A stretch of 40,616 nt of DNA, taken from Escherichia phage EC.W1-9. Of the stretch, positions 4,905-40,115 are shown piece after piece. Position numbers and translations under genes: made by a program. The DNA is taken from sequence record PP445227.1, one strand, 5' to 3'. Numbering within the stretch: the stretch's first letter is position 1; each line of letters opens with the position of its first letter. Under the pieces are notes generated by a model, which was given only the letters and a program-made list of their open reading frames with translations, was not told where the DNA came from and made no database searches.

Positions 4905-5830
4905 TCACTATTACCAAAGAACGCCTGCTGACAATCCAGCAGTGGCGCGAAACATACGGACCTGGTAGCAACGTTGTACTGCCAGCAGAAGAAGCGGAAG
5001 AACTGGCACGAATTGCTCTGGCATCGCTGGAGCAGAATGCACTATCTGGCAACTCTCGGCTTATTCCTGGTGAAGTGTTGTCCGCAATCCGGGAGGTTGC
5101 CAAGATTCGTGCCGATTTCGATGATTTTGACGGTGACAGGCGAGGTATCGGTGATTGTCTGGATGAGGCCGAGCAAGAGCTTATCGTTACCATTAACAAA
5201 TATGCCAGTCAGTTGGCAGCAGAACCGATAGCGACTAATGACGTTCGAGAGCAGCAGACAGCCGTTCCGCCAGTTCCGGAAATACAGGATGATGTCGCGC
5301 AAGCAATTGAAAATCTCAAGCAGAAGTTAGTGGAATGCAATCGCTATAACTACTGCGCAGATGCAGTTAAAGGCGTAGAGGATGCCTGCCACGCTGCCAT
5401 GCTTCATAGTGCCGAACCTGCAAGTAATCATGAAGAGTTGCCGCTTGATTATCTCCAAGGTCAAAAAGATGGTCTTGAATGGGCTGCGCAGCTTGCAGAA
5501 GCAAATCACCCACAAACTGGCGACTGGCTTTACGATGACCCGCTGGAGGTGGCTAAAGCTATCAGAAAAGGTCCTGACATGCCCGAATTCGATGGACCAA
5601 CTCCGGCAACTCCGGATGGTTGGATAAGCTGTAGTGAGCGAATGCCGAACGATAAACAGTATGTTTGGTGTTGGGGTAAGTCTTACGGCTGGACTGAGTG
5701 CGATACCTTCGAAGGGTATTACGATTGGTCGAGAAACAAATGGTGGGCAGTTACTGACGATGGGGAAGAACCGGCATCGAAAGTAACCCACTGGATGCCG
5801 CTACCAGAACCGCCGCAGGAGGTGAAGTGA
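4901..5830 (+). CDS. DUF551-domain phage protein
   Basis: 309 aa; C-terminal DGWISCSERMP…THWMPLPEPP resembles the DUF551 signature (recalled). Confidence 0.55.
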   Translation: MITITKERLLTIQQWRETYGPGSNVVLPAEEAEELARIALASLEQNALSGNSRLIPGEVLSAIREVAKIRADFDDFDGDRRGIGDCLDEAEQELIVTINKYASQLAAEPIATNDVREQQTAVPPVPEIQDDVAQAIENLKQKLVECNRYNYCADAVKGVEDACHAAMLHSAEPASNHEELPLDYLQGQKDGLEWAAQLAEANHPQTGDWLYDDPLEVAKAIRKGPDMPEFDGPTPATPDGWISCSERMPNDKQYVWCWGKSYGWTECDTFEGYYDWSRNKWWAVTDDGEEPASKVTHWMPLPEPPQEVK

Positions 5831-6358: not shown

Positions 6359-6368
6359 CATGGTACTA

Positions 6369-6383
6369 TTACCACAACGGTAA
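6369..6383. promoter_or_regulatory. Palindromic site TTACC-N5-GGTAA
   Basis: TTACCacaacGGTAA; a weaker second copy TTACCatggtGGTTA at 6387-6401. Confidence 0.45.
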
Positions 6384-6400
6384 CAATTACCATGGTGGTT

Positions 6401-6997
6401 ATGATGCCTGCTGAACCTAAAACCTATAAACGCAAATCAACGCAATTTAAGCCACTAACCGCAATGCAGGAGGCTTATTGCCAGTCATACATCAAAACGC
6501 CTGAAAACCAGACTCAGGCAGCGATTAACGCAGGATTCTCCCCAAATACAGCGGCAGTTAAAGCCAGTGTCATGATGCGCGATGAACGCATTCAAAAACG
6601 GATTGCCGAGTTGATGGAGGAGCGCAACAAACGAATGCGCGTCAGTGCCGATTACGTTCTCATGCGCCTGGTGGAGATCGACCAGATGGACGTGATTGAT
6701 ATCCTCAATGACGATGGGAGCCTTAAGCCAATCCGCGAGTGGCCGAAAATCTGGCGCACTACGCTTAGTGGCTTTGATCTGTCATCGACCATCATGAACA
6801 TGAACGAGGATTCGATAGAGACAATTCTCAAAAAAATTAAATGGCCTGACAAGGTGAAGAACCTCGAACTGATTGGTAAGCACGTCGACGTCAATGCATT
6901 CAAAGAACGCCTGGATGTTAATGTGAATGTGACAATTGCTGATCGCATAGCGGCAGCCAGGAAGCGACTCAAAGAACGTCAGGATGGTAATCAGTGA
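6401..6997 (+). CDS. Terminase small subunit
   Basis: AYCQSYIKTPENQTQAAINAGFSPNTAAVKAS region typical of phage small terminase; directly upstream of the large terminase. Start taken at the ATG at 6401 rather than the TTG at 6323. Confidence 0.7.
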   Translation: MMPAEPKTYKRKSTQFKPLTAMQEAYCQSYIKTPENQTQAAINAGFSPNTAAVKASVMMRDERIQKRIAELMEERNKRMRVSADYVLMRLVEIDQMDVIDILNDDGSLKPIREWPKIWRTTLSGFDLSSTIMNMNEDSIETILKKIKWPDKVKNLELIGKHVDVNAFKERLDVNVNVTIADRIAAARKRLKERQDGNQ

Positions 6998-9120: not shown

Positions 9121-9323
9121 CGTTCAGTCACCAGGCAAAAAAATGCCCGGCGAACCGGGCGAACTGGAAGCAATGAGTTATGCCTTCCGTGGCTGTACTG
9201 GTTTACAGCATGAAGTCATCGCAATGGCGTCCTGCTGTAAAAAGGGCGGTGATAGTCCTTCAAGGGAAACAGTCACCGCCAATCCCCTGGAACTTCTGGC
9301 ATCACGGTCCTTAGGCGTGATTC

Positions 9324-9400
9324 TGGCGTGGCATGCAGGATTCGAACCTGCGACCAACCGCTTAGAAGGCGGTTGCTCTGTCCAACTGAGCTAATGCCAC
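9324..9400 (-). tRNA. tRNA-Arg (anticodon UCU)
   Basis: Reverse complement folds as a cloverleaf: acceptor GTGGCAT/ATGCCAC, D-arm GCTC…GAGC, anticodon stem ACCGC/GCGGT with loop CTTCTAA, T-arm GCAGG-TTCGAAT-CCTGC, discriminator G, encoded CCA; 77 nt. Confidence 0.85.
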
Positions 9401-9729
9401 AACGCTGAGAGCACTGGTTTGGCTCGATATCAGGTAGGGTGGAACAGCCCGCTAATATCCAATGCTCTCATCGTTGTACCCTCGTCTCTTCCGAGGCGTC
9501 ACACCGAATCGCCGGGATGGTGAATCCCCGTGCGCGGAATAAAACCGCTCGACTTGCACATTCCGGCTACCTGGTTCGTTTGCCCGAGCAAGGGAGGGTG
9601 CCCCTTAAACGTATCCAGACCGCTATCGTCGCATGTGCCATACGCCGTACTGCTCAAAATAAAAGCTCACTCCACCTGTTCAATTTAACGACAAGCCAGT
9701 CAGGTTAGTAACCGGAATGAACTCTTTGG

Positions 9730-9744
9730 TTACCTTAAAGGTAA
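9730..9744. promoter_or_regulatory. Palindromic site TTACC-N5-GGTAA
   Basis: TTACCttaaaGGTAAT upstream of the head-gene cluster. Confidence 0.5.
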
Positions 9745-9834
9745 TAATTCGTGCATTAAATGTCAACTGTCTACGATAAATAAATCATATGTGGTTAAAT
9801 TGGTAATAATTTAATTGCGTACGGAGTCATTGAT

Positions 9835-10041
9835 ATGTGCATGGGTAGCTCACCATCAGTGCCTGCAACACCAGAAGTTCAGGCAGCACCACAGGAGCAG
9901 GATGCCGCCGTTGTTGATGCCCGCGACGAAGAAACTCGTCGCCGTCGCGCTGCTGCTGGTCGTAGTTCTACGCTGCTTACCGGTTCTCAGGGCGACACAT
10001 CAACCGCTAATACCAGCGGTAAAACGCTGCTTGGTCAGTAA
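9835..10041 (+). CDS. Small hydrophilic protein
   Basis: 68-aa ORF, GGAG 7 nt upstream of the ATG; low-complexity, Arg/Ala-rich. Confidence 0.45.
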   Translation: MCMGSSPSVPATPEVQAAPQEQDAAVVDARDEETRRRRAAAGRSSTLLTGSQGDTSTANTSGKTLLGQ

Positions 10042-27623: not shown

Positions 27624-27889
27624 AGCGATCACCTTTGTAGTTAGGTTAATCACCACCGCTGAGACCAATCAGATGGTGGTGAACTGTGCAGAGTTGGTCT
27701 TACCGGCTACAAAGGAACCCGGCGCACCTTTCGGTGCCCCCACACAGCCCACCATAGAATAGGTGCGCTTTACACATAAAAAAACCGCTTATGCGGCATA
27801 TGTGCCTCTGTAGTAATCCGGGAGACCAATCCCGGCACTGGATTTTGCCAGTGCCCGATTACTATGGCACAAGAGGAGTGCAATGTAAA

Positions 27890-27904
27890 TTTACCGAAAA
27901 GGTA
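27890..27904. promoter_or_regulatory. Palindromic site TTACC-N5-GGTAA
   Basis: TTACCgaaaaGGTAAT; TATATGGTTTGAT follows about 35 bp downstream. Confidence 0.5.
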
Positions 27905-28066
27905 ATAATAAATGCATAACTCACGTTATTTCAACCCTATATGGTTTGATTTATCCCATTTCAGAAAATACCTGCCTATTTTTTTGCCAGTATGCGTATA
28001 CTTTCGATAGAATGTTTACCCTAGAGGTAGTTGGGGGTGCCCGTGAACACGAAGAGAGCTACAGTA

Positions 28067-29263: not shown

Positions 29264-29339
29264 CTTATCTTCTCCATGCAATAACTGTATGTTTATACAG
29301 TAACAAATAATTTGTTTGCTATCCAGCACGTTTTGCAAA

Positions 29340-29354
29340 TTACCCGAAAGGTAA
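29340..29354. promoter_or_regulatory. Palindromic site ATTACC-N5-GGTAAT (perfect)
   Basis: In the divergent intergenic region between the 29263 gene and the tailspike. Confidence 0.55.
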
Positions 29355-29458
29355 TATCTATTGGTATTTATAGTCTTTTTATCCATATATGGTTTTTCAG
29401 GTAATAGAATAACCAGATATGCGGCGCAACGGGTGCTGCGACTATCTGGAGATTTAAC

Positions 29459-34187: not shown

Positions 34188-34243
34188 ATGTATTCATTTC
34201 TATTCACTCTACACCATATTTTTCGGCGGTACAGGTGACGGTA

Positions 34244-34258
34244 TTACCTTAAAGGTAT
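34244..34258. promoter_or_regulatory. Palindromic site TTACC-N5-GGTAt (imperfect)
   Basis: ATTACCttaaaGGTATA upstream of the integrase. Confidence 0.4.
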
Positions 34259-34300
34259 ACTCTCATACCGTCATGAAAATGGTTTCTATACGGGTGAATT

Positions 34301-35551
34301 GTGCTTACCGATACAAAATTAAAAAACCTCAAGCCGCAGGACAAACTGTACAAGGTCTCCGATCGTGACGGGCTGTATGTAGCTGTGCTTACGTCAGGCA
34401 CGGTCTCATTTCGTTATGACTACCGTATCAACGGTCGCCGCGAAACACTGGTAATCGGGCAGTATGGGCGTGACGGTATCAGCCTGGCAGAAGCGCGGGA
34501 AGAACTGATTGCTGCAAAGAAGCTGCTTAAAGCAGGCCAGTCACCGGCTGCGGCTAAACGTGACGGTATCAAAAAGATTCGTGGTGCCGAAACGTTTGCG
34601 GTACATACCGACAGTTATATGAAACACGTCATCCTGGCTGAAAGTACCCGCGCAATGAAGCAGGCAGTGATCGACCGTGACATACTTCCGGTTCTTGGCA
34701 ACAAAATGATGGCTGAAATTACCACATCGATGGTTCGTGATTTGTGTGACCGGATTGTCGAACGCGGTGGCCGGGCAACAGCAGTGCAGGCCAGGGAGAT
34801 CATCAGCAGCGTATACCGTCACGCCAATGACCGTGGTCATGGTTTGTTTAATCCTGCGGCTGACATTAAGCCTTCGTCTATCGCCATATTTAAACCACGA
34901 GAGCGAACACTGACACCAGAAGAAATTGGCCTGTTCTTCCGCACGTTGGATGCCATTGGTGCTATGGGCACTATGAAAATGGCTTTAAAACTGGTGCTTA
35001 TCACTATGGTTCGTAAGGGCGAATTCACCAATGCAACGTGGGATGAAATAGATTTTAAAAAATGGACATGGACAATTCCTTCAGACCGCATGAAGGGAAG
35101 CCGGGCGCATGTTATTTACCTGCCTAAACAGGCTCAGGATATATTGGTCGGGTTGCAGATGTGCGCTGGTGGAAGTGAATATCTGGTTCCTGGTCGTTAC
35201 AATTTCCGGAAGCCATTATCTAATGCCGCGCTGAACTCTCTGATCGACAGAACGGTGAAAATAATAAATGAAGATGGTGAGCATATTCAGGATTTCACCG
35301 TACACGATATGCGCCGTACAGCCAGTACGTTGTTGCATGAGGCTGGTTATCCTTCAGACTGGATTGAAAAGGCTCTGGCACATGAGCAGAAAGGTGTGCG
35401 CGCCGTATATAACAAAGCGGAATACGCCAGACAGCGCGCCTACATGTTGCAGCAGTGGGCCGATATGATAGATTCCTGGATTAACGGGGAGCATACGGAT
35501 CTGATTCCGTTCTCCCCGTCGAAGTTTGAGAAGTGGATGGCGAGGGAATAA
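34301..35551 (+). CDS. int: Tyrosine integrase
   Basis: N-terminus (M)LTDTKLKNLKP…DGLYVAV typical of the DUF4102-type integrase arm domain; C-terminal catalytic region with HDMRRT and AHEQ…VRAVYNKAEY (Tyr) signatures. Confidence 0.85.
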   Translation: MLTDTKLKNLKPQDKLYKVSDRDGLYVAVLTSGTVSFRYDYRINGRRETLVIGQYGRDGISLAEAREELIAAKKLLKAGQSPAAAKRDGIKKIRGAETFAVHTDSYMKHVILAESTRAMKQAVIDRDILPVLGNKMMAEITTSMVRDLCDRIVERGGRATAVQAREIISSVYRHANDRGHGLFNPAADIKPSSIAIFKPRERTLTPEEIGLFFRTLDAIGAMGTMKMALKLVLITMVRKGEFTNATWDEIDFKKWTWTIPSDRMKGSRAHVIYLPKQAQDILVGLQMCAGGSEYLVPGRYNFRKPLSNAALNSLIDRTVKIINEDGEHIQDFTVHDMRRTASTLLHEAGYPSDWIEKALAHEQKGVRAVYNKAEYARQRAYMLQQWADMIDSWINGEHTDLIPFSPSKFEKWMARE

Positions 35552-35554
35552 CGT

Positions 35555-35749
35555 TTAATTATTCTGCTGATTTTCTTCCATCTCGGCTTCTGCTGCCAGT
35601 GATTCAATTTTATCTGTGAATATTGCTGACAGTGTTGCAAATTCAGCATCAGTGACAGCGGGAATTGGAACAAACCTGATCCCGCTGTGTGCAAGCATGT
35701 TTGCAGTTTCAAGGCATTTCCTTAAATCTGCTGGTGATGCCCTGTTCAT
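35555..35749 (-). CDS. Small hypothetical protein, last gene of the leftward operon
   Basis: ATGA overlap with the methyltransferase stop; 64 aa. Confidence 0.45.
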   Translation of the reverse strand: MNRASPADLRKCLETANMLAHSGIRFVPIPAVTDAEFATLSAIFTDKIESLAAEAEMEENQQNN

Positions 35750-36396
35750 GCTGCACGCTCCCGCCCCTGGTTGTCTGTTGGTGACAGCGGAGCATTGCTG
35801 AATGCATTTGTTAATCTGGCAATATCCAACGCGTATCCAGGGTGTAGTTGCACTGCCGGGTCTTCGCACTGATTACCCCAAACATCGAAACCATGAGACG
35901 ACTGGCGGGCGAACAGTTCAATGCGAGAAACATCGCCTAACAATTGCACAAGTTTTTCACGAACGATATCTGGTTTTCTTGAATGCTCAAGCCGCGGTGC
36001 GGTAAATGACTGAACGATCCCTGCATTAATGCGCGTAGGTAGTTTTCCCTTTACTGCAAACAGGCAATCTTCACTATTGGCGCGAGTCATGTGACCCATA
36101 CCCATAACCAGTTTATCTGGTTGTCGACTACCACATTTTATCCACGTGAATCCCTTCATGGTCATCAGACGGAATCCCCAGGCCTCAACAACTTTTAGTG
36201 CTTCGAGTGGTTGTGTTGGCACCCACCACATGGCCAACAGACAGTTTTCATCGGCCAAATCCCACACAGGAAGGCGGCAGATATCCAGCACACTCATAAC
36301 CGGATATTTAAAACCGGCACCGCGATTACCATCTGCGGCTTTGTCCCGGTATACCCAGGGTGGATCTGCATAGATTAGTGTGTATTTCTTAGTCAT
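35746..36396 (-). CDS. MT-A70-family DNA N6-adenine methyltransferase
   Basis: Catalytic DPPW motif (LIYADPPWVY); ATG at 36396 after GGGGTGG. Confidence 0.75.
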   Translation of the reverse strand: MTKKYTLIYADPPWVYRDKAADGNRGAGFKYPVMSVLDICRLPVWDLADENCLLAMWWVPTQPLEALKVVEAWGFRLMTMKGFTWIKCGSRQPDKLVMGMGHMTRANSEDCLFAVKGKLPTRINAGIVQSFTAPRLEHSRKPDIVREKLVQLLGDVSRIELFARQSSHGFDVWGNQCEDPAVQLHPGYALDIARLTNAFSNAPLSPTDNQGRERAA

Positions 36397-36640
36397 AAAC
36401 CACCCCACAACATCCTATGCCGCTATAGTCGCCACGGCGAAGGCCGTTACCTTTTGTGATACATTGGTCCCTGCGAACCGCGATCCTTGCACGCTCAACA
36501 TCACCAGAAGCAACATCCATACACTGAAGCCAAAGGTGAGCGGCAATGCGGAACTGCCCTTTTTTCTCTCTTTCAATCGCGCGTTTTTCGATCTCTATCG
36601 CCGCAGGAGTAACGGCGACAATCTTTGACGGACTGCGCAT
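36389..36640 (-). CDS. Hypothetical small protein
   Basis: Start taken at the ATG at 36640 (AAGGT upstream); overlaps the methyltransferase start by 8 nt. Confidence 0.4.
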   Translation of the reverse strand: MRSPSKIVAVTPAAIEIEKRAIEREKKGQFRIAAHLWLQCMDVASGDVERARIAVRRDQCITKGNGLRRGDYSGIGCCGVVYD

Positions 36641-36797
36641 TGAAACCTTGTTCATGTGATATTTTTCAAGTCGGCTTAACTTTCTCACTTAATCCAACCC
36701 TCTCTGAAAATTAATGCCAGCAGATAAAGCCATGCTGAAACAGAGGCCAGGAATAAGTACCATCCTGACCATTTGCTCCAGTGCCTTAGCAGCACAC

Positions 36798-37046
36798 TCA
36801 TGCCGCGTTGCTCACGGGACGATATACACGTTGCTGAACAGGAGGTTTTTTACCCTGGAACTCTGCCGGGCTTGCTGCCTGACGTTCATCAAGCCAACGC
36901 TCAACTTCATCACGGTTCCATGCGCAGCGTTTATCGGTGATATACCAGCGTTTAGGAAATTCCCCTGCGCGCTCCATACGGTCGATAGTGCTCCATGACA
37001 GTGGAACCACCGCCAGGAGTTCCTTCTTACCTAATGCACCTTTCAT
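36798..37046 (-). CDS. AlpA/Xis-like small DNA-binding protein
   Basis: KKELLAVVPLSWSTIDRMERAGEFPKRWYI matches the AlpA-type HTH pattern; GAGAGG SD. Confidence 0.65.
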   Translation of the reverse strand: MKGALGKKELLAVVPLSWSTIDRMERAGEFPKRWYITDKRCAWNRDEVERWLDERQAASPAEFQGKKPPVQQRVYRPVSNAA

Positions 37047-37095
37047 AAATACCTCTCTTGGTTGCAGTGCGGCGCGCGTGGCGCCGCGGTGGTGG

Positions 37096-38037
37096 TTACA
37101 TAGATGTTTCGTTTAATTCTTCCCGACGAACGCTGTAAACGTCGGTGGCTTTTGCCAGCAGTTCGTCATCATCTGAAAGTTTTTGTGCAATGTATTTGTA
37201 AGCCTTATCCAGTTCGGAGACAGTGCTGTAATTCATCGCTGCGCTGGTAAAGGCCATCAGCATTTCTTCTGGATCACGGCTGTCCGATTTACGCGTTTGC
37301 TCATCAGGCTTTTTCGCTGGTTTAGCGTTGATCAGACTGTTCATTCCCGCAGCAGTGGTCGTTTGCGGAGTAATGTCTCGCTCAACGCGCGGTGCCGTTT
37401 CCTGTAATTCGTCTGGGGTGTAGACGCCCATGATTACGTCAGGACAGTGCAGGCGAGACCAGCGTTTTGTCGCAAGGTATGCGAGTTGTTGTTTCGGATC
37501 ACTGGCCCAAAGTGTGGAGTTTCTTACCTGTGCTTGAGACAGCATTAACTCAAGCACTCGAGGTTGATCCTCGCCCTTCATGGTTGCCCATACGCGAACA
37601 CCGCAGCCTTCTTCGTCTTTTAGAGTCCAGCCTGGTGCGATATATGGATTGCCGTTTTTGGATGTTTTCTCAACAAACTTACCGATCACGCGTTCCCACG
37701 GCCCGAACCACTCGTAGTTGATGCGATCTTTTGTTGGCGACATCGTTGAGATAACTGCGTTTACTAATTGGGCTTCATAACCTAGCGTGCCGTTCACAAC
37801 ATGGGTTTTCTGAGCCACGGCAAACGGGTTCATTCCCCACTGCGCAGCCTGCATTGCCACGGCCATGCAATCAGCTGGTTTCCCGGCGAGGTGCGCCGGT
37901 ACCGTTACGCGGCTTTGCGCCATTACCTCGGCGAATTTCATCAGTTGGTTCAAGCCGTCTGGGCTGAAAATAGTTGCAGCAGTTCCAGCGATTGCTGTGT
38001 CTACTGGTGCGTTGATGTTTGCGATGTCGTTGCTCAT
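37096..38037 (-). CDS. recT: RecT-family single-strand annealing protein
   Basis: RecT-like length and sequence pattern; ATG at 38037 overlaps the upstream exonuclease stop (ATGA). Confidence 0.7.
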   Translation of the reverse strand: MSNDIANINAPVDTAIAGTAATIFSPDGLNQLMKFAEVMAQSRVTVPAHLAGKPADCMAVAMQAAQWGMNPFAVAQKTHVVNGTLGYEAQLVNAVISTMSPTKDRINYEWFGPWERVIGKFVEKTSKNGNPYIAPGWTLKDEEGCGVRVWATMKGEDQPRVLELMLSQAQVRNSTLWASDPKQQLAYLATKRWSRLHCPDVIMGVYTPDELQETAPRVERDITPQTTTAAGMNSLINAKPAKKPDEQTRKSDSRDPEEMLMAFTSAAMNYSTVSELDKAYKYIAQKLSDDDELLAKATDVYSVRREELNETSM

Positions 38038-38855
38038 ATGTACATATCCTGTTTGCGTGCCCACTCAGGGCGTTTAATGATTTCCACACCGCCCCATTCA
38101 TCATTGATGCGGCATTCGTGATAGGTATTCAGATCCCGGCGGAACAGAGCGTGCCCGGCATCGACATCCTGCGCATCCAGCTCGAACACGCGTACCGGAT
38201 ACCGACCACAATCAATGCTTTCGCTCACGGCAAGAAAGAAAAAACCATGCGGCTGACCAGTAACCCTCATTGCGCCTTCGCGGTACATTGCGTCCTGCAC
38301 GTGGTAGCGGAATTCCTCGATGTGGCGTGCAAAACGGTCCATATCTGCAACCTTTTTCACGTCGACGATCACGTTGTGCTCGTTCAGCCATTTGTCTGGA
38401 CGAATTCGGCACAACTCCCCCGTCTCTTCATCGTTCCAGTACATTGATGCTTCGCAGTAACCAGGTGCTTCCAGCATCCAGCGTGCCGCCGGGTGAGCCA
38501 TTGCGCTATCACGCATCAGCTCCAGTTTCCGCCACTGCTCGGCATCAAGTACCGTAATCCCCATATCCGCCACATCACGAAGAAATTCCTCTTCGTCAGC
38601 TTTACCTTGTTTCGTCCGACGATCGAATTTCGGTGAAACAATGAAGCGTTTGTCGAACTCTCCAGGCTCCAGAAGCAGACAGTGCAATGCGGTTCCCATA
38701 TCCAGTGCAGACTTTTTCTCTTCGTCTTCTGGTGCTGCCTGAACCCATTTAAGAAGCGCCGGATTCTTGGCAACCATGTCCAGTTGCGACTTACTCACGC
38801 CGTCACCGGCGTGGTAGTCTTCGTTGCTGATGTCGAAATAAATTCCCGGTTTCAT
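38034..38855 (-). CDS. RecE-like 5'-3' exonuclease (PD-(D/E)xK, exonuclease VIII C-terminal domain type)
   Basis: N-terminus GIYFDISNEDYHAGDGVSKSQLD and later D…E-x-K motifs resemble the RecE nuclease domain; paired with RecT. Confidence 0.65.
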   Translation of the reverse strand: MKPGIYFDISNEDYHAGDGVSKSQLDMVAKNPALLKWVQAAPEDEEKKSALDMGTALHCLLLEPGEFDKRFIVSPKFDRRTKQGKADEEEFLRDVADMGITVLDAEQWRKLELMRDSAMAHPAARWMLEAPGYCEASMYWNDEETGELCRIRPDKWLNEHNVIVDVKKVADMDRFARHIEEFRYHVQDAMYREGAMRVTGQPHGFFFLAVSESIDCGRYPVRVFELDAQDVDAGHALFRRDLNTYHECRINDEWGGVEIIKRPEWARKQDMYI

Positions 38856-39151
38856 GCCGCGTCCCTCTGTCCATCAAGCTGATCCGCCAGATCCCAGCGG
38901 GCGATAATTGCCATTGCCTCTCGCCGATAGGCATCCATCAGTTCTTCGAACTCAGGGCTGTCTTTAGCAGCCTCCAGTACTTCCTGGCGAACGCCTTTAA
39001 CTGTTACAACGTCGAAAGTTGATGCCAGTTGATGAAGCCGGATACTCTCAATCAGTTCAACTTGTCGGTCATATAGCTGTTCTGACAGACGGTAGTCCTT
39101 GTCGAATGCCAGCATGATTTTTTGAAGATTTTTCTGCTGATTAACGTTCAT
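38852..39151 (-). CDS. Hypothetical protein
   Basis: ATG at 39151 preceded by GGGAGGG; overlaps the RecE start (ATGA). Confidence 0.5.
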   Translation of the reverse strand: MNVNQQKNLQKIMLAFDKDYRLSEQLYDRQVELIESIRLHQLASTFDVVTVKGVRQEVLEAAKDSPEFEELMDAYRREAMAIIARWDLADQLDGQRDAA

Positions 39152-39153
39152 TA

Positions 39154-39306
39154 TCAGCCCTCCCATATCTCGTTATCGTTGGCCACATCGCGAGCTTCTT
39201 TGCTGACGAAAGCCCACTTAATGCCTTCCTGTAAGGTGCGGAACTTCCAGCTCATGAATCCGCATGCAGTAACGCAGTACCAACCGTTGATGATTTTCCA
39301 CTGCAT
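39154..39306 (-). CDS. Small Cys/Trp-rich protein (50 aa), first gene of the leftward operon; not in the ORF track
   Basis: Translation MQWKIINGWYCVTACGFMSWKFRTLQEGIKWAFVSKEARDVANDNEIWEG; SD GAGGTAA upstream; stop 2 nt before the next gene's SD-ATG. Confidence 0.45.
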   Translation of the reverse strand: MQWKIINGWYCVTACGFMSWKFRTLQEGIKWAFVSKEARDVANDNEIWEG

Positions 39307-39325
39307 AACTTGTTACCTCGGTCTG

Positions 39326-39340
39326 TTACCGTTGAGGTAA
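39326..39340. promoter_or_regulatory. Palindromic site TTACC-N5-GGTAA
   Basis: TTACCgttgaGGTAAT 20 bp upstream of the leftward operon's first gene; an extra TTACC half-site at 39313. Confidence 0.5.
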
Positions 39341-39387
39341 TAATTATGCGTATATGGTTTGATGTCAATAGATATGAGTTAAAAAAA

Positions 39388-39402
39388 TTACCCGTTAGGT
39401 AA
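39388..39402. promoter_or_regulatory. Palindromic site ATTACC-N5-GGTAAT (perfect)
   Basis: Second site in the same control region. Confidence 0.5.
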
Positions 39403-39414
39403 TCGAATAGGCAA

Positions 39415-39438
39415 TAAAAAAGCCGCCATAAGGCGGCT
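39415..39438 (-). terminator. Rho-independent terminator after the repressor-like gene
   Basis: On the minus strand GCCGCC-ttat-GGCGGC followed by TTTTTT. Confidence 0.65.
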
Positions 39439-39459
39439 TACTTACTGAAAAATATGGTT

Positions 39460-40044
39460 TTATTGTTTGTTTTTTTCGTTCTGGTTGATGACAAATTCAA
39501 TGTAACTTTCGATCTTTGCTTTCTCGGTTTCGGGTAACAATGCGTAGCGCGAGCGATCATAGTTGATGGTCGCAGGGTCGTGCGGGTGAATCAGTAATTC
39601 ATAGCCGTGACGCCCGAATGCGGATGCAACATTCTCCAGGGTGGAAATGGAAACGCTGACCTCATTGTTTAACAGGCGGCTGATTGTCACCTGGGCTACG
39701 CCGGATGCGCGGTGAAGTTTTCCCTGTGTTGAAAGGTCGCGGCTTTCGCTCATCCAGCGTTCCAGGTTGTGAGCCGCCAGCTGGCCAATGTCGCTTGGGC
39801 CGACAGGCTGAAAACCTTCCTGAGAAAGCGAGCGATCGATATCAAGCCAGTTACGGGGTTTATTGGCGGCAGCTTCAATTTTTCGCGCAACCTGATCGCC
39901 GATAACCTTCTTACCAAGAGCCCAGCGGTTTACCAGATTTGCCTGAGTTCCAAGTTTTTCAGCCATCCGCGTCTGAACACCATTGAATTCACGGTCGATC
40001 AAGTCGTTGAGATTTTGCCTGCGGACGTCCTGGATACTTTTCAT
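39460..40044 (-). CDS. Repressor-like DNA-binding protein with two HTH-like segments
   Basis: 194 aa; segments LGTQANLVNRWALGKKVIGDQVARKIE and SGVAQVTISRLLNNEVSVSISTLENVASAFG look like XRE-type HTH units; divergent from a Cro-like gene across a triple-site region; no S24 peptidase motif noticed. Confidence 0.5.
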   Translation of the reverse strand: MKSIQDVRRQNLNDLIDREFNGVQTRMAEKLGTQANLVNRWALGKKVIGDQVARKIEAAANKPRNWLDIDRSLSQEGFQPVGPSDIGQLAAHNLERWMSESRDLSTQGKLHRASGVAQVTISRLLNNEVSVSISTLENVASAFGRHGYELLIHPHDPATINYDRSRYALLPETEKAKIESYIEFVINQNEKNKQ

Positions 40045-40098: not shown

Positions 40099-40113
40099 AT
40101 TACCCAACAGGTA
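40099..40113. promoter_or_regulatory. Operator-like site 1 of the divergent control region (ATTACCcaacaGGTAAA)
   Basis: TTACC-N5-GGTAA between the repressor-like and Cro-like genes. Confidence 0.55.
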
Positions 40114-40115
40114 AA

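Follow-up and report, generated by a model that had tools for sequence, protein, structure and literature searches.

The leftward gene block of Escherichia phage EC.W1-9 (PP445227.1; the window, the whole stretch of 40,616 nucleotides analysed) raises the question of what kind of operon it is, and of what is done by its first gene, a 50-aa open reading frame (ORF), and by the MT-A70 methyltransferase near its end. The original prediction took the ORF for a candidate host-interference peptide of the Kil/CIII type and the methylase for a plausible anti-restriction enzyme. We conclude that the operon is already known: it is the early-left block of phiV10/epsilon15-type phages, re-discovered here. 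In the explanation that we favour and consider probable, the interval is a repressor-controlled early-left (pL-type) operon of a podophage of this type, with the gene roles and expression model given below. What remains of interest is the pair of early genes encoding a 50-aa and a 99-aa protein, together with the disputed substrate of this methyltransferase family.

An early-left operon shared with phiV10 and epsilon15

Over positions 35500-39460 nucleotide identity is 99.7% with Escherichia phage YDC107_2 and 98.5% with phiV10 (NC_007804), at full coverage in both comparisons, and each gene is annotated in phiV10. The remainder of the window, outside the operon, matches this phage group in its replication and structural genes. 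Because the operon region and the remainder both match records of the phiV10 group, the window is, judged from its sequence, an entire genome of a temperate podophage of the phiV10/epsilon15 type (Uetakevirus); it is circularly permuted, with its break between cro and the replication genes.

Gene order and control region are the same as in phiV10 (PhiV10p32-p39) and epsilon15 (gp29-gp37). Epsilon15 differs from the window in having a YqaJ-type exonuclease and a shorter methylase tail. In phiV10 an extra A in an A-run (5030-5060; window counterpart 38034-38060), located 20 nt before the exonuclease stop, fuses exonuclease and RecT into a single annotated coding sequence (PhiV10p37), whereas in both the window and YDC107_2 the two genes are separate and meet in an ATGA overlap. 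Among 5426 complete E. coli genomes, 559 contain the segment with the 50-aa gene, the 99-aa gene and the operators, and 539 contain the PerC-like/MT-A70/DUF1382 cassette, all at 95% identity or above. The 50-aa and 99-aa genes would head the early transcript of a prophage module present in about one tenth of complete E. coli genomes.

Nine genes, identified from profile matches in Pfam, PHROGs and NCBIfam, run leftward in the order 50-aa protein, 99-aa protein, RecE-like exonuclease, RecT, AlpA/Xis, 38-aa membrane peptide, PerC-like protein, MT-A70 and DUF1382. With their control region and flanking genes they are laid out as follows.

39460-40044, minus strand: cI-like repressor with two helix-turn-helix (HTH) domains, predicted to control the operon (context; profile matches and phiV10 annotation)
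39420-39439, minus strand: intrinsic terminator of the cI-like repressor gene (8-bp stem with 6 GC pairs, then a T-run; a terminator is also annotated in phiV10)
39387-39403, no strand: distal operator palindrome ATTACCCGTTAGGTAAT (exact ATTACC-N5-GGTAAT, upstream of the -35 hexamer)
39340-39368, minus strand: pL-type early-left promoter, TTGACA-17 nt-AATTAT (sigma-70-like, 10 of 12 consensus matches)
39325-39341, no strand: proximal operator palindrome (1 mismatch; overlaps the -10 hexamer and the transcript start)
39154-39306, minus strand: 50-aa orphan early protein (PhiV10p39 / epsilon15 gp37; phrog_898, E 1.9e-38)
38852-39151, minus strand: 99-aa acidic protein (PhiV10p38 / epsilon15 gp36; phrog_856)
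38034-38855, minus strand: RecE-C-terminal-like PD-(D/E)XK exonuclease (DUF3799, E 9.5e-23; phrog_412, exonuclease VIII)
37096-38037, minus strand: RecT single-strand annealing protein (PF03837, E 2.2e-44; its ATG overlaps the exonuclease stop, ATGA)
37069-37087, minus strand: GC-rich 7-bp hairpin in the operon's sole intergenic gap, recT-alpA (-17.3 kcal/mol, z -1.26, not significant)
36798-37046, minus strand: AlpA-family excisionase/regulator (PF05930; phrog_66, excisionase and transcriptional regulator)
36685-36801, minus strand: 38-aa Trp-rich peptide with a single predicted transmembrane helix (phrog_17484, membrane protein, host-takeover category; annotated in phiV10)
36389-36688, minus strand: PerC/ANR-like small regulator (PF06069, E 6e-7; ANR family below cut-off; phrog_868; its stop overlaps the MT-A70 start by 8 nt)
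35746-36396, minus strand: predicted orphan MT-A70 (class beta) N6-adenine methyltransferase, 216 aa, DPPW (PF05063; orthologue of M.EcoPA8orf6770P)
35555-35749, minus strand: DUF1382 protein, whose gene closes the operon and converges with that of the integrase (PF07131, E 5e-30; ATGA overlap with MT-A70)
34301-35551, plus strand: P4-type tyrosine integrase, convergent with the operon (context; ORF call and phiV10 annotation)

Neighbouring genes are separated by a 2-nt gap or joined by start/stop overlaps of 4-8 nt, the one larger gap being the 49 nt between recT and alpA. The operon had been described as opening with the 50-aa ORF and ending with MT-A70; the opening stands, whereas the DUF1382 gene (35555-35749), whose product belongs to the same family as lambda orf63, comes after the methylase. 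The hairpin between recT and alpA was rejected as a terminator, as it has no U-tract and its stability does not exceed that of shuffled sequences; its counterpart is annotated in the epsilon15 record as a pausing stem-loop.

The promoter at 39368-39340 is the sole minus-strand promoter-like site found by consensus scan within 35400-39400, and the repressor-gene terminator (39439-39420) separates the repressor transcript from pL. Palindromes equivalent to the two operators are annotated as repressor-binding in the epsilon15 record, whose note on its repressor cites the SPC32H repressor structure 5d50. Allowing up to 2 mismatches, ATTACC-N5-GGTAAT occurs at 18 sites in the window, against 1.2 expected. 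This anatomy suggests that, once the two ATTACC-N5-GGTAAT operators have been vacated by the cI-like repressor, RNA polymerase would start at 39368-39340 and produce a single message of ~3.75 kb carrying the nine linked genes. By homology, these would provide a RecE-like/RecT pair, an AlpA-type excisionase, a PerC-like regulator, an orphan MT-A70 and four small proteins. The MT-A70 would probably be made only in lytic growth, because the minus-strand scan found no promoter-like site within the operon.

The 50-aa ORF is a gene under selection for its peptide

The 50-aa ORF (39154-39306, minus strand) begins with ATG, about 9 nt downstream of a GAGG Shine-Dalgarno sequence. Its TGA is followed after 2 nt by the ATG (39151) of the 99-aa gene, whose own Shine-Dalgarno sequence, GGAGGG, falls within the final codons of the 50-aa ORF. 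Given these junctions, and the promoter, operators and terminator upstream, its earlier description as the tightly coupled first gene past the leftward control region is correct.

To gauge selection, the first 25 codons were compared with four relatives (epsilon15, Tyrion, BUCT554 and one Klebsiella prophage). Synonymous differences per site (pS) ranged from 0.49 to 0.76 and non-synonymous differences (pN) from 0.016 to 0.073. Because synonymous change is high and non-synonymous change low in the minus-strand frame, we conclude that purifying selection acts on the 50-aa peptide rather than on a DNA signal that overlaps its gene. The records of YDC107_2 and Tyrion annotate an ORF on the opposite strand instead (39122-39340, plus strand, in the window). 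This antisense frame is interrupted by stop codons in L011, a distant lineage from IMG/VR, and for this reason we read the antisense ORF as a shadow ORF.

The family is conserved in 35 phage records, with the window protein the same as PhiV10p39 (100% identity) and sharing 79% identity with epsilon15 gp37. It is nonetheless small, comprising 28 clusters by word-indexed search and 19 by an exhaustive hidden Markov model search of 1.84 billion representatives. Distant members (34-57% identity) retain W3, G8, Y10, T13, G16, S19, F22, W31 and F33 but have lost both cysteines. The protein had been called Cys/Trp-rich. The tryptophan half of this label is apt (5 of 50 residues, in a protein whose 25 N-terminal residues are aromatic and almost invariant); the cysteine half is not, with two residues of 50, both replaced in distant relatives. 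A zinc-finger or disulfide role for the cysteines was rejected on the same replacement. The protein has no zinc ligands and lacks a His pair.

Truncated forms of the gene also occur. P0089 joins the N-terminal ~17 residues of the 50-aa protein, in frame, to the C-terminal end of the 99-aa protein, and P0091 joins them to the C-terminal tail of the MT-A70. As these are natural deletion fusions, some prophages have lost part or all of the intervening operon.

The first gene has the position of lambda cIII and kil, without their similarity

Lambda CIII (54 aa) and Kil (47 aa) are, like the product of the 50-aa gene, small proteins whose genes lie between pL and the recombination genes and that are made early from a repressor-controlled promoter. 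They show no sequence or profile similarity to the 50-aa protein and have a different predicted secondary structure. Searching the 50-aa family against both by BLASTP gave nothing at E<=100, and hhalign returned probabilities of 0.6% against CIII and 0.2% against Kil, on which grounds homology to either was rejected. The gene thus does lie where lambda keeps cIII, kil and gam, as the original prediction had noted, but the likeness does not extend to the protein, and a Kil/CIII-type role is an analogy from position only. The pL operon of lambda, moreover, begins with N, a gene without a counterpart in the window operon.

PHROG 898 is the only profile that the 50-aa protein matches (full length, 1-50 of 50, E 1.9e-38), and the distant L011 member matches it as well. 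None of 20 family members had a Pfam match at E <= 10, neither the 50-aa nor the 99-aa protein had a match in NCBIfam, PADLOC or PDB sequence profiles, and scanning with P0085, a distant relative, turned up no viral contig. AlphaFold2 was run a second time with a diverse alignment because the first model was uninformative; three beta-strands and two short helices are predicted in the second model, at a predicted local distance difference test (pLDDT) score of 73.9 (moderate confidence). The core of CIII is helical, unlike this predicted beta-rich fold. A Foldseek search with the model returned no significant structural neighbour (E of at least 0.66). HicB-N/UPF0150 (TTHA1013, 1wv8), YegP/UPF0339, DUF2188 and matrin-type zinc fingers are likewise small domains of beta-sheet plus helix, but none of them matches significantly.

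In all lineages examined (Klebsiella prophages, epsilon15, Tyrion, BUCT554 and the distant IMG/VR lineage) the 50-aa gene is the first after the cI-like repressor. It is followed by the 99-aa gene in enterobacterial phages and by a 348-aa gene in L011. The 99-aa gene in turn stands immediately upstream of the exonuclease in the loci examined, as does its distant homologue in L011. Since in L011 the 348-aa gene splits the pair while the 99-aa homologue still abuts the exonuclease, the 50-aa gene appears to track the promoter/immunity region and the 99-aa gene the recombination module. The exonuclease after the pair is of the DUF3799 family in the window and BUCT554, and of the YqaJ family in some E. 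coli genomes and the Klebsiella prophages; there are also E. coli prophages in which the pair is followed by a MarR-family gene, not an exonuclease. Comparison of the 99-aa family with lambda Gam by hhalign gave a probability of 2.2%, and the family has no Pfam match, so that a Gam-like role for the 99-aa protein finds no support from profile comparison.

Our best guess is that the 50-aa product would be a soluble early protein that binds a protein or nucleic-acid partner, of host or phage origin, right after derepression.

An MT-A70 methyltransferase with a different upstream neighbour

The methylase matches PF05063 over the whole profile (positions 1-172 of 172) with 79.6 bits, against a curated cut-off of 23.9, and carries DPPW, catalytic motif IV, at residues 11-14, where it is invariant in six aligned orthologues. 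Among solved structures, those closest in sequence are the Tetrahymena MTA1 DNA methyltransferase, whose DPPW aligns with this motif, and human METTL3. Profile and motif bear out the earlier assignment of this gene as a predicted N6-adenine methyltransferase of the MT-A70 family. Its start is most likely the ATG at 36396 (216 aa), as in the phiV10 annotation, rather than the GTG at 36408. No restriction enzyme is adjacent, the neighbours being the PerC-like and DUF1382 genes, and PADLOC matches the methylase alone.

Over residues 1-187 the protein is 83% identical to gp5 of phage PA8 (M.EcoPA8orf6770P; E 7e-124). The two enzymes have an identical DPPW, the same loop at residues 86-98 and a DUF1382 gene after them. 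They differ in their last ~29 residues, which are unrelated, and in their setting, as the window gene belongs to the pL operon of a podophage and not to a lambdoid Shiga toxin (Stx) phage. The PA8-type C-terminal ~27 residues are missing from the window protein, which has instead a tail of the Tyrion/BUCT554 type (the alignment ends at residue 187). Its loop at residues 86-98, on the other hand, is of the PA8 type, whereas epsilon15, Tyrion, BUCT554 and the Klebsiella prophage have a different loop in common. The methylase therefore looks mosaic, with a PA8-type loop from Stx phages and a Tyrion/BUCT554-type tail, and the loop may be a target-recognition element.

Upstream of the methylase, PA8 encodes PNB-2 (143 aa), whereas the window has the PerC-like gene, which shows no similarity to PNB-2; neither PNB-1 nor PNB-2 has a tblastn match anywhere in the window. 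The gene in this slot varies among phages, being PerC, DUF1317, a winged-HTH protein (75 aa, in Tyrion), a 35-aa ORF or a 219-aa ORF. In Klebsiella prophages, a 219-aa protein without a Pfam match (9224-9883) is encoded directly upstream of a shorter MT-A70; Klebsiella prophage relatives are integrated next to guaA.

Gong, Chakraborty and Koudelka (PMC10810198) reported that purified M.EcoPA8orf6770P had near-background activity on dam- DNA and formed, with the upstream gene product PNB-2, a 1:1 complex that prefers 16S rRNA, and that spontaneous induction of the prophage is increased by the methylase gene. The same authors suggest that the C-terminal tail of the PA8 enzyme may matter for formation of the holoenzyme with PNB-2, for which the modified rRNA base was not identified (PMC10810198). 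M.EcoGV, a close relative in an Stx prophage, is catalogued as a GATC DNA methylase (PMC6602927), a specificity based on in vivo over-expression according to Fang et al. 2012 as cited in PMC10810198. Class beta methyltransferases act as homo- or heterodimers (PMC7544214).

The window has 149 GATC sites, an observed/expected ratio of 0.77 (mild depletion) that is uninformative on methylase specificity. In E. coli, GATC methylation would duplicate host Dam. Because the closest characterised relative, the PA8 enzyme, was near-background on DNA and reported to act on 16S rRNA when bound to PNB-2, and because GATC activity would be redundant with Dam, we regard an anti-restriction role of the window methylase as no more than possible.

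In our favoured account, the enzyme would most likely methylate replicating phage DNA at the N6 position of adenine, either in a Dam-like way (GATC) or with low specificity, because the window lacks PNB-2, the partner that directs the enzyme of the Stx phage to 16S rRNA. A different partner, for instance the coupled PerC-like protein, could redirect it to RNA, and we consider this a serious rival. The window methylase is in any case a natural variant without PNB-2, and as such bears on whether small neighbouring proteins set the substrate.

Weighing the explanations

Several points weigh against the account of a repressor-controlled early-left operon with assigned gene roles. Informative homology is lacking for the 50-aa, 99-aa, 38-aa and DUF1382 proteins. 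The promoter and terminator scans were simple consensus matching, and the 5 promoter-like sites found, against 6.4 expected, are not enriched over shuffles. AlphaFold2 with close homologues only gave the 50-aa protein a different, all-helical, single-helix model of low confidence (pLDDT 59.8). The substrate of the methylase family is itself disputed between GATC DNA in vivo for M.EcoGV and, for PA8, a holoenzyme preference for 16S rRNA with near-background activity on DNA.

The alternative closest to the original prediction is that the 50-aa protein is a Kil/CIII-type host-interference peptide, inhibiting cell division or FtsH, and that the MT-A70 shields phage DNA from restriction. A small, early-expressed and strongly conserved ORF between pL and the exonuclease/RecT genes would suit the first part, and an orphan methylase without a restriction partner, with relatives listed as GATC methylases in REBASE-derived tables (PMC6602927), would suit the second. 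We nevertheless think it unlikely, given that the 50-aa protein resembles lambda CIII and Kil neither in sequence nor in profile and that its predicted N-terminus is beta-rich, not a helical hairpin or an amphipathic helix. For CIII in particular, neither the cro nor the PhiV10p42-equivalent ORF matches a CII family in Pfam or PHROGs, although a divergent CII could escape these profiles. The shielding role is further opposed by the redundancy with Dam and by the weak action of the purified orthologue on dam- DNA (PMC10810198). The 50-aa and 99-aa proteins might instead be accessory factors of the RecE/RecT module, such as a functional Gam analogue blocking RecBCD. The pair directly precedes the exonuclease whichever family (DUF3799 or YqaJ) is present, in L011 the exonuclease still has the distant 99-aa homologue right next to it, and a Pfam search found no recognisable Gam among the operon proteins. 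Yet hhalign against lambda Gam gave about 2%, the pair is split by the 348-aa gene in L011, so that the 50-aa gene follows the promoter and not the recombinase, and in some E. coli prophages it is the MarR-family gene that comes next; we find this reading quite improbable. That the 50-aa ORF is non-functional as a protein, serving as a leader for coupled translation or being the shadow of the antisense ORF 39122-39340 (plus strand), would agree with a stop codon that in every case touches or overlaps the start that follows, whichever gene this belongs to, and with the antisense annotations in YDC107_2 and Tyrion. It is very hard to reconcile with the synonymous/non-synonymous ratio, which shows selection on the minus-strand amino-acid sequence, with relatives down to 34-46% identity that keep the aromatic and glycine pattern, and with the stops that break the antisense frame in L011, and we give it hardly any credence.

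For the methylase, it is conceivable, though in our judgement doubtful, that it acts like the PA8 enzyme as an rRNA methyltransferase tuning prophage induction, with another specificity subunit such as the PerC-like protein. The 83% identity to M.EcoPA8orf6770P includes the PA8-type loop at 86-98, enzymes of class beta function as homo- or heterodimers (PMC7544214), the methylase start lies within an 8-nt overlap with the gene before it, and Tyrion carries a winged-HTH protein in the partner slot. Set against this are the lack of a PNB-2 homologue in the window, a different version of the C-terminal tail suggested for the holoenzyme and a modified rRNA base left unidentified in PMC10810198. 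The gene upstream of the methylase also varies between phages, which counts against a fixed partner. A joint proposal combines two independent claims, and as a pair we hold them only tentatively. In it, the 50-aa protein (phrog_898) would be a new type of early effector, unrelated to Kil, CIII or Gam: an ultra-conserved, aromatic mini-domain with a predicted beta-beta-beta-alpha-alpha fold, which might target, for example, the repressor, a protease or RecBCD. Separately, the MT-A70 would be a modular enzyme whose substrate is set by its upstream partners, so that PNB-2, a winged-HTH protein or a PerC-like protein could choose between GATC DNA and rRNA.

Further candidates and other features of the genome

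Two other products of the operon are candidates for acting on the host. The 38-aa membrane peptide has 5 Trp among its 38 residues and falls in the moron/host-takeover category of PHROGs; judged from these features, it is a Kil-like, membrane-acting candidate no worse than the 50-aa ORF. The PerC-like protein, translationally coupled to the MT-A70 and unmentioned in the original prediction, is a candidate host-regulation factor. In enterohaemorrhagic and enteropathogenic E. coli (EHEC and EPEC), PerC homologues carried by prophages (Pch) switch on the LEE virulence island.

Many of the operator-like palindromes lie far from the immunity region, and several are paired (for example 1814-1830, 1876-1892, 6368-6402, 9729-9745, 29339-29355, 34243-34259 and 40099-40115). 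The repressor may control promoters besides pL and pR.

Rfam models matched a C4 antisense RNA (27672-27759, minus strand; 78.6 bits) beside an isrK-type small RNA (27778-27854, minus strand; 74.7 bits), and a palindrome resembling the repressor operator (27890-27906) adjoins them. Taken together, 27672-27906 looks like a second immunity region, with P1/P7-style antisense-RNA control of an antirepressor. The phage also carries a tRNA-Arg with anticodon TCT (9324-9400, minus strand).

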